Below are positions 4,965-6,630 of a stretch of 17,214 bases of DNA, piece by piece. The first letter of the stretch is position 1, and each line of letters starts with the position of its first letter. Below the pieces are notes generated by a model, which worked only from the letters and a program-made list of their open reading frames with translations, ran no database searches and was not told the origin of the DNA. Source of the stretch: a virus; UHGV virus genome UHGV-0135926. One strand, 5' to 3'. The translations under genes and the position numbers were made by a program.

Positions 4965-5336
4965 TCACTGAGCCGCTTTAAGCTTTCCATCCACCGCGCC
5001 AGTGATCCCGAACAGCTGACCCTGATCTTCCTGCAGGATGGTGAGCTTCCCGCCTTTGTTGACCCACATCGGGGTTTCGGTTGTGTCCTCTTCGGAGGCT
5101 TTACCACGCGGTGTTGGGGTGCTGTAGTTCAGCTTGTGCTTGATCTTGACGCGCTTCTCTTCAACGGAATTACCCATGCGCTCAAAATCAAAGGTGAGGA
5201 CTACTTTGCCTTTGTTGCCGTTGTTCAGAACGCCAAGCGCGGTGGTGTTAAGTGCTGCCGCGATTTTGTTCATGAACACGCCGGCATCCAGTTCGCCAAG
5301 AAAATCTGGCACTACGGTCATGCGGTCATTACTCAT
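4965..5336 (-). CDS. First gene of the leftward operon; YfdP-like by size and position (123 aa), function unknown
   Basis: ATG at 5334-5336 with GAGGG 7 nt upstream. Not arginine-rich, so not an N-type antiterminator. Confidence 0.6.
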   Translation of the reverse strand: MSNDRMTVVPDFLGELDAGVFMNKIAAALNTTALGVLNNGNKGKVVLTFDFERMGNSVEEKRVKIKHKLNYSTPTPRGKASEEDTTETPMWVNKGGKLTILQEDQGQLFGITGAVDGKLKAAQ

Positions 5337-5466
5337 GGTTTTACCCTCGTTAAGGCGGCTGCCACCGCCGAACTTTCTCCATACTCAACTGGAAGCGCAC
5401 TCCGCTTGTTTCACACCTGTCACCCATAACTGGTAAGTGAAGGAGTGCGCTTTCATGTTGTGATCT

Positions 5467-5517
5467 GAAAAAGGCTGGCGGTTACCGGAAATACACGGGA
5501 AAACACCGGTCCGCCAG
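5467..5517 (-). terminator. Intrinsic terminator in the pL leader (tL-like)
   Basis: Minus-strand RNA: CUGGCGG-ACCGG-(17-nt loop)-CCGGU-AA-CCGCCAG followed by CCUUUUUC. That is 12 bp of stem with a 2-nt bulge. Plus-strand coordinates 5475-5517 for the stem and 5467-5474 for the U-tract. Confidence 0.6.
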
Positions 5518-5797
5518 AACATGGAGTTACTTGTTATTGCTTTAGCCTGCTTTTAACCACATCAGGCGCGGTGGTAGGTATCTTCGGGCGGGGGCCAGTG
5601 ACTAGCTGGCATCCCTACGGTACTTTTCACCGACAACCGCGGGTTAGACGGTTCCGTTTCGTCGGATAGAGCTGTCGACGCTGGTAGTCACTCCAGCCCG
5701 TAACCCCTCCCGAAGACACCTGTCAGCGAATCATCCGGTTATTCATACGTCACCGGCGGCTACTTCGTGGGCGTCCTGCCTGTTCGCTGTTTCGTAT

Positions 5798-5831
5798 AGG
5801 TACATTATGTACCTTGAGGGTACATTGTCAA
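5798..5831 (-). promoter_or_regulatory. pL promoter with overlapping OL operator(s)
   Basis: On the minus strand: TTGACA (plus 5826-5831), 16-nt spacer, CATAAT (plus 5804-5809). A perfect 19-bp palindrome ATGTACC-ttgag-GGTACAT (5807-5825) overlaps the spacer and -10, with an extra half-site forming AGGTACAT-t-ATGTACCT (5798-5814). Confidence 0.6.
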
Positions 5832-5833
5832 GG

Positions 5834-5859
5834 ATAAAAAAACCTGCCGAAGCAGGTTT
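5834..5859 (-). terminator. Terminator of the repressor transcript
   Basis: Stem aaacctgc (5840-5847) / gcaggttt (5852-5859), loop cgaa, followed on the minus strand by a run of seven U (plus-strand A 5836-5842). Sits between the cI stop (5871) and the pL -35. Confidence 0.65.
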
Positions 5860-5870
5860 GTGATGATGGG

Positions 5871-6545
5871 TTAAGGCTTATGCCTGTGCCGTCGTGGTTT
5901 TCCTGAGAAAACAACGGTGCCAATAATCGAGCAATTACCATTGATCCTAATATATGGCTCTGGCCAGTTGGCGTTTAAAGCTTTAAGAAACTTTTCGCCA
6001 CTATCTTCTATTAATCGTTTAAACGTCGTTTCGCCAGAATCATGCATTAAAGCAATAACATCATCGCCATGAGAAGCTGCAACCTCTGGATCTACAAAAA
6101 TCATATCGCCAGGACGATACTCATCGATCATTGAATCACCAATGACGCGTAAGATATAAGTCATTGGCCCGCACGGAACGGGACAAGGATATGTTTCTAC
6201 ACTACTCAAATCTACCTCTGCATAACCAGCATCCGTCCATGCTCCGGCTTGCACCCAGGATATAACCGGGACCATCGTAATTGATCTTTTAACGTCTGAA
6301 ACGTCGGGTGATTTAGCAATGTTGGTAGTTTGATGTTCGGTATCTAGCCAACCTTGAGGCAAGTCAAAACATTTTTCGATATGCCTTGCCATAGCGTCAC
6401 CAATACCTTTGGTGGCACCTTCACCCATAAACCGGCTGGTTTGTGTAGGTTCACGATCGATCATGTTAGCGAAGTAGCTATTACCCCCAACACCATCTCT
6501 CAATTTTCGGGCGTTTAATCGCCTGATTTCCTGGATAGTTTTCAT
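5871..6545 (-). CDS. cI: CI-type repressor with C-terminal LexA-like S24 peptidase domain (SOS-cleavable)
   Basis: C-terminal half resembles P22 C2 / lambda CI (ISWVQAG…, RVIGDSM with catalytic Ser, TFKRL with catalytic Lys, …INGNCSIIGTVV). N-terminal XRE-like HTH. ATG at 6543-6545 chosen over the track's TTG at 6560 because the putative pRM places the TSS on that ATG. Confidence 0.85.
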   Translation of the reverse strand: MKTIQEIRRLNARKLRDGVGGNSYFANMIDREPTQTSRFMGEGATKGIGDAMARHIEKCFDLPQGWLDTEHQTTNIAKSPDVSDVKRSITMVPVISWVQAGAWTDAGYAEVDLSSVETYPCPVPCGPMTYILRVIGDSMIDEYRPGDMIFVDPEVAASHGDDVIALMHDSGETTFKRLIEDSGEKFLKALNANWPEPYIRINGNCSIIGTVVFSGKPRRHRHKP

Positions 6546-6551
6546 CAGCAA

Positions 6552-6630
6552 ATTAAACAATGTGTACCTCTATGGTACAAGTACCTTGTGGGTTCATTTC
6601 TTTCGTGTAATATGTACACAGGAGGTACAT
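6552..6630. promoter_or_regulatory. OR region: three 19-bp operators, pRM (leftward) and pR (rightward)
   Basis: Operators GTGTACC-tctat-GGTACAA (6562-6580), AAGTACC-ttgtg-GGTTCAT (6579-6597), ATGTACA-cagga-GGTACAT (6612-6630). pRM on minus: TTGTAC (6575-6580), 17 nt, TTTAAT (6552-6557), 6 nt, then ATG. pR on plus: TTGTGG (6586-6591), 16 nt, TAATAT (6608-6613). Confidence 0.55.

Follow-up and report, generated by a model that had tools for sequence, protein, structure and literature searches.

What is the role of the long interrupted hairpin that stands immediately upstream of the first early-left gene in the viral genome UHGV-0135926? The stretch of this genome analysed here (17,214 nucleotides, called the window throughout) had been described in an earlier note as carrying a 16-bp interrupted hairpin at this place. 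Two roles had been suggested for it, an RNase III site or a site of translational control, and it had been likened to the RNase III-sensitive hairpin in the lambda N leader. From the comparisons reported below we favour, with a probability of about 0.65, the reading that the hairpin is a cis-acting RNA in the untranslated PL leader and one member of a family that serves as RNase III processing sites.

The hairpin and its surroundings in the window

On the minus strand of the window the order of features is: cI-like repressor; its terminator; PL; leader; leader terminator; hairpin; GC hairpin; SD; yfdP; and YfdQ/DUF2303 (Table 1). The terminator, the GC hairpin, and the RBS that the note had seen around the hairpin are indeed present in the order it gave. 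The PL-like promoter, described as strong, recurs together with its operator in locus L016. Between PL and the hairpin lies an untranslated and structured leader of about 330-340 nt, in which neither an N-like ORF nor a nut site was found. The hairpin of the leader terminator (-19.5 kcal/mol, z -2.56) is situated only 5 nt upstream of the hairpin element, while the short GC hairpin on the other side is kept in L016 and in phage mEp390. A Pfam search with the first early-left gene gave no match. ARAGORN predicted no tRNA in the window, and a tRNA-Arg annotation that seemed to lie under one of the BLAST matches to the hairpin proved to be an adjacent gene.

Table 1. Features of the window in and around the early-left leader.
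Feature	Coordinates	Strand	Description
Hairpin element	5386..5462	-	77 nt, CACAACAUGAAAGCGCACUCC-[interior]-GGAGUGCGCUUCCAGUUG; member of a conserved family; from fold, covariance model and homologues
Basal helix, 5' strand	5442..5462	-	CACAAC, bulged A5456, UG, A5453 opposite C, then AAGCGCACUCC; 20-pair helix
Basal helix, 3' strand	5386..5403	-	GGAGUGCGCUU-C-CA-GUUG
Variable interior	5404..5441	-	UUCAC/GUGAA, ACC/GGU and GUUA/UGAC stems, UGGG loop; ACAAGC on the 3' side unpaired
cI-like repressor (Peptidase_S24)	5871..6560	-	upstream of the hairpin, same strand
Repressor terminator	5840..5859	-	
PL-like promoter TTGACA-16-CATAAT	5804..5831	-	overlaps the palindromic operator ATGTACC-N5-GGTACAT; source of the leftward transcript that bears the hairpin
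Leader intrinsic terminator	5468..5517	-	stem CUGGCGG/CCGCCAG 5517-5475 plus U5 5472-5468
Short GC hairpin GGCGGUGGCAGCCGCC	5354..5369	-	between the element and the yfdP SD
First early-left gene, YfdP family	4965..5336	-	123 aa; ATG at 5336; SD GAGGG 5348-5344; named after the RefSeq homologue

The two inverted repeats on which the original description was based are exactly where it had put them and are perfectly complementary: aagcgcactcc (5393-5403) pairs with ggagtgcgctt (5442-5452) over 11 bp, and ttcac (5410-5414) with gtgaa (5437-5441) over 5 bp. What had been taken for a 16-bp interrupted hairpin, though, is really a 77-nt element with a basal helix of ~20 bp (motif CACAAC-N-UG-A-AAGCGCAC...) and belongs to a widespread family. 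On the leftward RNA the pairing extends outwards through UG/CA and CAAC/GUUG (5462-5454 with 5392-5386), the irregularities of the basal helix being one bulged A (A5456) and one A.C mismatch (A5453.C5392), and inwards through ACC/GGU and GUUA/UGAC to a cap formed by the UGGG loop. The element (76-77 nt of RNA) has an MFE of -32.8 kcal/mol; 200 dinucleotide shuffles gave -18.3 +/- 3.1 (z -4.67), and none of them was equally stable. It is also one of only five inverted repeats in the 17.2-kb window that have arms of at least 11 nt lying no more than 80 nt apart. No U-tract follows the hairpin on either strand (the next letters are AGUAUGGAG leftward and UCAUGUUGUG rightward) and it is missing from the list produced by the terminator scan, which rules it out as an intrinsic terminator.

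The leader holds several other recognizable segments. The first ~70 nt of the PL transcript (5725-5791, minus strand) are 85-94% identical across phages of several genera, i.e. Yersinia, Pantoea, Pectobacterium (ZF40), Klebsiella, Citrobacter (phiNP), and Salmonella (ST64B), which have little else nearby in common; this segment occupies the position of putL in HK022, has no evident put consensus, and has a fold of ordinary stability (z -1.0). The motif ACCACCGCGCCUGAUGUGGUUAAAAGCAGGC (5545-5575, minus strand) recurs directly upstream of family hairpins at many loci, including e14 of K-12. Its bases can be arranged in an H-type pseudoknot (CCAC/GUGG plus GCCUG/CAGGC); at other loci a 5-bp stem capped by a GAAAGA loop, boxB-like in appearance, takes its place, and this stem covaries (GCCUG/CAGGC versus GCCGG/CCGGC). 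Transcripts ending at the leader terminator would yield a discrete non-coding RNA of ~330 nt (5468-5800, minus strand); by eye, the hairpin of this terminator (GGCGG..GUUUUCCCGUG..CCGCC plus U5) resembles the DicF terminator, and the Rfam DicF model gave no match to it. Finally, a mini-ORF of 10 codons (AUG GAG AAA GUU CGG CGG UGG CAG CCG CCU UAA; 5350-5382, minus strand) begins just past the hairpin, crosses the GC hairpin, and stops 11 nt before the AUG of yfdP.

A large family of hairpins

BLAST located further copies of the 77 nt of 5386-5462, embedded in other flanking sequence, in phage mEp390 and several prophages of E. coli. Exact-word scans of IMG/VR, one for each arm, returned at least 120 contigs apiece, and from the matches listed we extracted 164 instances representing 82 distinct sequences; a scan of genome contigs with a 14-mer gave almost only chance matches. 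A covariance model (R1) built from 50 window-type sequences scores the window hairpin at 89.7 bits, and searching with it uncovered two diverged groups of paralogues, sub2 and sub3, beside the window type (sub1). Altogether the family comprises more than 240 copies at ~145 viral or prophage loci. The arms of the window type are almost invariant (CACAAC-N-UG-A-AAGCGCAYUCC ... GGAGUGCGCUU-C-CA-GUUGUG); those of sub2 read AAGCGCGUUC/GAACGCGCUY, and those of sub3 AAGAGCACUG/CAGUGCUCUU with variants. The interior varies from ~20 to 90 nt across the family, the upper end (~90 nt) being reached in sub3. In the window type it measures ~35 nt and comes in several types that differ in their mutually compensating stems and contain an unpaired GGUUUGUWAC-like segment, each type keeping a small hairpin with a G-rich loop. 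Rfam 15 recognized no family in the window hairpin at either gathering or permissive thresholds, and leaves the homologous Qin hairpin (see below) likewise uncovered; a full-text search for the arm sequences in the library consulted found no paper. The hairpin family is uncatalogued, having no Rfam family match.

In sub3 members the 3' arm (GUGCUCUUACC or GUGCUCUUUCC; e.g. L046 7757-7866 and L013 7464-7538) contains UGCUCUU(A/U), the core of the antitermination signal boxA, which is paired in the helix; the equivalent segment of the window, UGCGCUUCC, has two mismatches to it.

Conservation across the family bears directly on the coding potential of the hairpin. An ATG-initiated ORF of 22 codons (5457-5389) does run through it, with first codons that are similar in relatives, and could be read as encoding a small leader peptide (MKAHSFTYQLWVTGVKQAECASS). 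This is extremely improbable: the ORF lacks an SD; the A of its ATG is the bulge position, which occurs as A, G, C, or U or is deleted; it spans anywhere between 8 and more than 23 codons as the stop codon moves; and the conservation of the 3' arm continues past the early stops. Since start, length, and stop are all unconserved, the coding interpretation was rejected.

Covariation was assessed on an arms-only alignment of 60 distinct elements across the 20 pairs of the basal helix. The cells of this helix are paired in 85.7% of cases compared to 75.2% in shuffles (a value of 85.7% was reached by none of 500), and the covariation score is 0.343 versus 0.175; controls in which the arms were slid pair in 36-48%. 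Across the superfamily 14 of the 20 basal pairs change on both sides. Evidently, with covariation above that of both shuffles and slid controls, the basal helix is under selection. The helix shows no strand bias, however (86 G.U cells versus 70 A.C cells), and for sub2 copies the antisense strand gives the better fold; both observations are unexpected under a pure sense-RNA model.

The lack of any preference for G.U over A.C is what one would expect if the selection acted on DNA, i.e. if the arms were bound by a phage or host protein, or the repeat were a small element capable of moving or recombining, with the RNA fold being incidental. Both arms are nearly invariant, recognition of identical half-sites would also produce changes on two arms, and BLAST alignments between phages are often interrupted at its borders. 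We nevertheless regard an inverted repeat working at the DNA level as quite improbable: the span of interior lengths is incompatible with a fixed dimer spacing, the orientation to the operon is constant and the copies are not dispersed, neither target-site duplications nor empty sites were seen, G.U pairs are found in the interior hairpins on the sense strand, and the homologue in Qin is processed as RNA.

The discrete types of the interior, on the other hand, are reminiscent of specificity loops, and raise the question whether the element acts in trans, as a C4/CI-like antisense RNA released by RNase P or as a decoy for the small RNA GcvB. Its 77 nt are the size of P1 C4, and CCA follows the stem. 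The nearly invariant 5' flank CACAACA (5456-5462 in the window, and family-wide) moreover equals the R1 target consensus of GcvB, CACAACA (PMC4104026). Such a role is very unlikely all the same. A duplex scan of the window transcript for a C4-like target gave nothing outstanding, and neither the Rfam C4 model nor P1 matched; the CCA is paired with UGG in many variants, and CACAAC is sequestered in the helix by pairing with GUUGUG; and there is no terminator or Hfq-type 3' end.

Arrangement of the hairpins in early-left leaders

The 145 loci carry single elements (57), pairs (79), or triplets (9). The usual order in these arrays is sub1 followed by sub2 or sub3, so that the arms of neighbouring elements cannot cross-pair. 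All 40 sub2 copies start a few nucleotides past a T-run, as do 27 of the 82 sub3 and 9 of the 120 sub1 copies, that of the window included; in the cases inspected (L016, mEp390, e14, and the window) this T-run is the U-tract of an intrinsic terminator. Other copies start 5-50 nt after a PL-type promoter, and further ones directly follow the conserved motif CCACCGNGCCUGAUGUGGUKAAAAGMCAGGC.

When the ORFs of 141 loci were clustered, a cI-like repressor was found upstream on the same strand in 98 of them. Genes for cro, YmfL, DUF4222, and replication lie divergent from the element, and those for Ead/Ea22, ParB-like proteins, YfdQ, and integrase downstream on the same strand. From this clustering the element always lies in sense orientation in an untranslated early-left leader; no family copy was found in the rightward operon. 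The leaders examined are 340-900 nt long, untranslated, and highly structured. Locus L016 agrees with the window in PL, operator, and yfdP, yet its leader is built differently: PL, E1 (at ~+5), 170 nt, terminator, E2, GC hairpin, and RBS. Leader modules are thus shuffled among phages.

Two further observations concern these leaders. In the prophage of E. coli PCP07014 (L003 2739-3082) a tRNA-Arg gene is sandwiched between a sub1 copy ending 1 nt short of it and a downstream sub2 copy; the same arrangement occurs in at least 13 viral contigs. With the tRNA flanked in this way, the hairpins may delimit a tRNA precursor. In addition, the palindromic motif UAUGGCACAUGUGCC (GGCACATGTGCC) is present in mEp390 (L001 2925-2955) and downstream of many type D/E elements; in these leaders it turns up repeatedly, both before and after the hairpins.

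The many family members close behind a PL-like promoter bring to mind the put sites, and HK022 putL likewise starts close after PL (PMC9378689). A nascent hairpin that binds RNA polymerase and confers processive read-through might be expected in a phage with no N-like gene between PL and the element, and would account for arm sequences conserved beyond the needs of pairing. The case for a put-like antiterminator is nonetheless highly unlikely to hold. HK022 putL and putR and the HK639 putL-like RNA have a common consensus that is absent from the window element; the latter has no similarity to these RNAs, and R1 found no match in the HK022 and HK639 put loci. A put site consists of two short stems rather than one 20-bp helix, and the rightward operon has no copy. 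In the window and in all 40 sub2 copies, furthermore, the element lies directly downstream of the terminator and therefore cannot act on it.

The hairpins of e14 and Qin in E. coli K-12

As the immunity region of the phage group to which the window belongs resembles that of e14, the prophages of K-12 were examined. In e14 we found the upstream motif together with a short E1, a terminator, and E2; as a group these overlap the doubtful ORF ymfH, and the two hairpins are at NC_000913.3 1,201,103-1,201,198 and 1,201,374-1,201,428. Sub-threshold Rfam matches to DicF and STnc100 between the two e14 hairpins in turn led us to Qin, where R1 has a match of 38.8 bits (E 4e-11) at L312 2669-2761, corresponding to NC_000913.3 1,649,168-1,649,260. 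This hairpin is flanked by ydfC and dicF, in a part of the dicBF operon that is not translated; it is in sense orientation, and the dicA repressor gene lies upstream on the same strand. Its geometry (7 bp, bulge, 2 bp, A.C mismatch, and at least 10 bp) is the same as in the window.

Processing of DicF by RNase III was reportedly described by Faubladier et al. in 1990 and was confirmed by Ragunathan et al. in 2023. A 190-nt DicF species shares its 3' end with the 53-nt DicF and is gone in an rnc mutant; primer extension assigned its 5' end to cleavage by RNase III 'between positions 813 and 814' (bioRxiv 10.1101/2023.04.14.536235). The literature is not uniform as to which end is concerned, two reviews having RNase III make the 3' end of a 72-nt DicF instead. 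The cut can be placed on the Qin sequence by two routes. Going by length, 189 nt back from the 3' end of DicF (L312 2935) leads to 2746; going by numbering, +813/814 leads to 2750/2751 if the origin is assumed to be the start (~1938/1939) of the predicted dicBp promoter, TTGACC-17-TAATCT. Both estimates fall in the 3' arm of the hairpin (2736-2758; GUGCG^CUUC^CGGUUGUG, arm stretch GUGCGCUUCCGGUUGUG). The 3' arms of window and Qin are alike over 15 nt with a single difference (GUGCGCUUCCAGUUG), and the computed cut zone (L312 2746-2751) lies within a stretch, GUGCGCUUCC, that is identical in the window alignment. From these lengths and numbers we infer that the RNase III cut of Qin lies inside the hairpin.

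The link with DicF itself does not extend to the family. Raising the E limit to 10 still gave no Rfam DicF match in the window, and none of 14 related loci had a DicF at gathering score, the sub-threshold DicF-like match being confined to e14; DicF proper is not a general partner of these hairpins. The sub-threshold STnc100 matches (L312 2947-3087 in Qin and L310 5193-5414 in e14) begin inside or right after a 3' arm-like ..GUUGUGGUGAAUGCGGCU.., and an RNase III cut in a hairpin of this kind may supply the start of RNAs of the STnc100 type.

The annotated ymfH of e14 (L310 5100-5460 on the minus strand, about 1,201,100-1,201,460 of NC_000913.3) overlaps two family hairpins and a terminator, and this region is probably a non-coding RNA and not a gene. 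In mEp390 the ORF mEp390_036 (L001 2634-2876) likewise looks spurious and is located in a structured leader.

Probable processing of the early-left leader

The support for the RNase III site that the note had suspected is homology to the Qin dicBF hairpin: because the 5' end of the DicF precursor, by length and numbering, falls in that hairpin, the copy in the window is most likely an RNase III site as well. The canonical substrate of E. coli RNase III is a quasi-continuous helix of at least 20 bp. Transcripts that read through the leader terminator would carry the hairpin to the enzyme. Alignment to the Qin site predicts a cut in the basal helix, in the 3' arm at ~5395-5390, with a second one probably opposite it on the 5' arm. 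Cleavage would separate the structured leader of ~340 nt from the yfdP-yfdQ mRNA and the latter would then begin, at a new 5' end, ~55 nt before its AUG. By analogy with Qin, the window copy would be cut in the same manner, and the stability or expression of the downstream mRNA may be affected. Translational control by occlusion of the RBS, the other role originally suggested, finds no support: the SD and AUG of yfdP are unpaired in the centroid structures whether the hairpin is present or removed. An effect on expression would more likely be exerted through mRNA stability or through the new 5' end.

A simpler function would be that of a plain stabilising or anti-Rho structure, in which a 5' stem-loop protects the mRNA or bars Rho and RNase III plays no part. 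The length and high degree of structure of the untranslated leaders (340-900 nt) would fit, some copies stand at the 5' end of the primary transcript, and a U-rich single-stranded stretch that is a potential RNase E target precedes many of them. This leaves unexplained, however, the conservation of the arm sequences and of the bulge and mismatch, as well as the RNase III-dependent end in the Qin homologue, and we consider it unlikely.

Processing by RNase III remains our preferred interpretation of the hairpin. RNase III is not known to need arms as conserved in sequence as these, for which reason an additional recognising factor, or a role at the DNA level, may come into play. A wider and quite tentative picture, which we hold to be possible rather than probable, is that lambdoid phages of the e14, Qin, ST64B, and SfV kinds use these hairpins as a modular system by which RNase III punctuates their early-left leaders. 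Non-cross-pairing arrays (sub1, then sub2 or sub3), often placed right after terminators, would release individual units such as the DicF precursor, STnc100-like RNAs, or even tRNA-Arg, and the nearly invariant boxes CACAAC/GUUGUG and AGNGCAC/GUGCNCU would be recognised, besides RNase III, by an extra phage or host factor.

That RNase III makes the end of the DicF precursor in Qin was already known; the family as a whole, with its breadth, its covariation, its organisation in arrays, and its coupling to terminators, matches no Rfam entry, and its arm sequences are absent from the papers of the library consulted. The comparison connects an anonymous phage-leader hairpin with a site in E. coli prophage RNA at which RNase III cleavage has been mapped by experiment, one of only a few such sites. 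The Qin site turns out not to be isolated: it is one copy of a large covarying family spread over hundreds of lambdoid phages and prophages, including e14 and Qin of K-12. The analysis provides a concrete and testable model for the processing of long untranslated early-left leaders in N-less lambdoid phages, suggests how prophage small RNAs such as DicF and STnc100 may obtain their ends, and flags ymfH (e14) and mEp390_036 as probable mis-annotated ORFs overlapping these RNA elements.

Comparison with known systems

The lambda N leader, to which the hairpin had been compared from the outset, is an apt analogy and not a relative. In both cases a long irregular hairpin, in which RNase III cleavage is expected, lies between the early-left promoter and the first gene. 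The lambda hairpin is found between nutL and the RBS of N, and modulates N-mediated translational repression. The window, in contrast, has no N gene, no nut site, and an unsequestered RBS, and R1 gave no match in the PL-N region of lambda (34500-36000), its best score of 6.4 bits falling elsewhere.

With putL and putR of HK022 and the putL-like RNA of HK639 the element shares its nature as a cis-acting structured RNA near the start of an early operon in N-less lambdoid phages. It differs from them in sequence and architecture, and also in position: a put site must precede the terminators, whereas the window element follows one.

The antisense RNAs C4 of P1 and P7 and CI of P4, which are hairpin-type RNase P substrates, are comparable in size (~77-79 nt), have a terminal stem, and arise by processing of the leader transcript of a phage. 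In the c4 locus of P1, C4 uses its loops to pair with sites a short way downstream; for the window element, by contrast, no comparable target was found in the window transcript and no Rfam C4 match, and R1 is without a match in P1. The M3 RNA of phi80 was also considered as a relative and was rejected, being an oop-like antisense RNA.

The RNase III sites of the T7 early region and of the rpsO-pnp leader are also long hairpins with bulges or internal loops, and they punctuate polycistronic or leader RNA. The rpsO-pnp site, too, follows a terminator and precedes an RBS. In sequence, these sites are not known to be related to the window hairpin.

The nearest counterpart is the hairpin of Qin dicBF. 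Their settings differ: in Qin the hairpin comes after three small genes and before DicF, and its cleavage yields a 190-nt precursor of the small RNA, whereas in the window the hairpin follows the leader terminator and directly precedes the first gene, DicF is undetected, and the interior is unrelated. The two are homologous, however (38.8 bits), and have the same geometry (6-7 bp, a 1-nt bulge, 2 bp, A.C, and at least 10 bp); and both lie, in sense orientation, in an untranslated part of a repressor-controlled early-left operon with the repressor upstream on the same strand.
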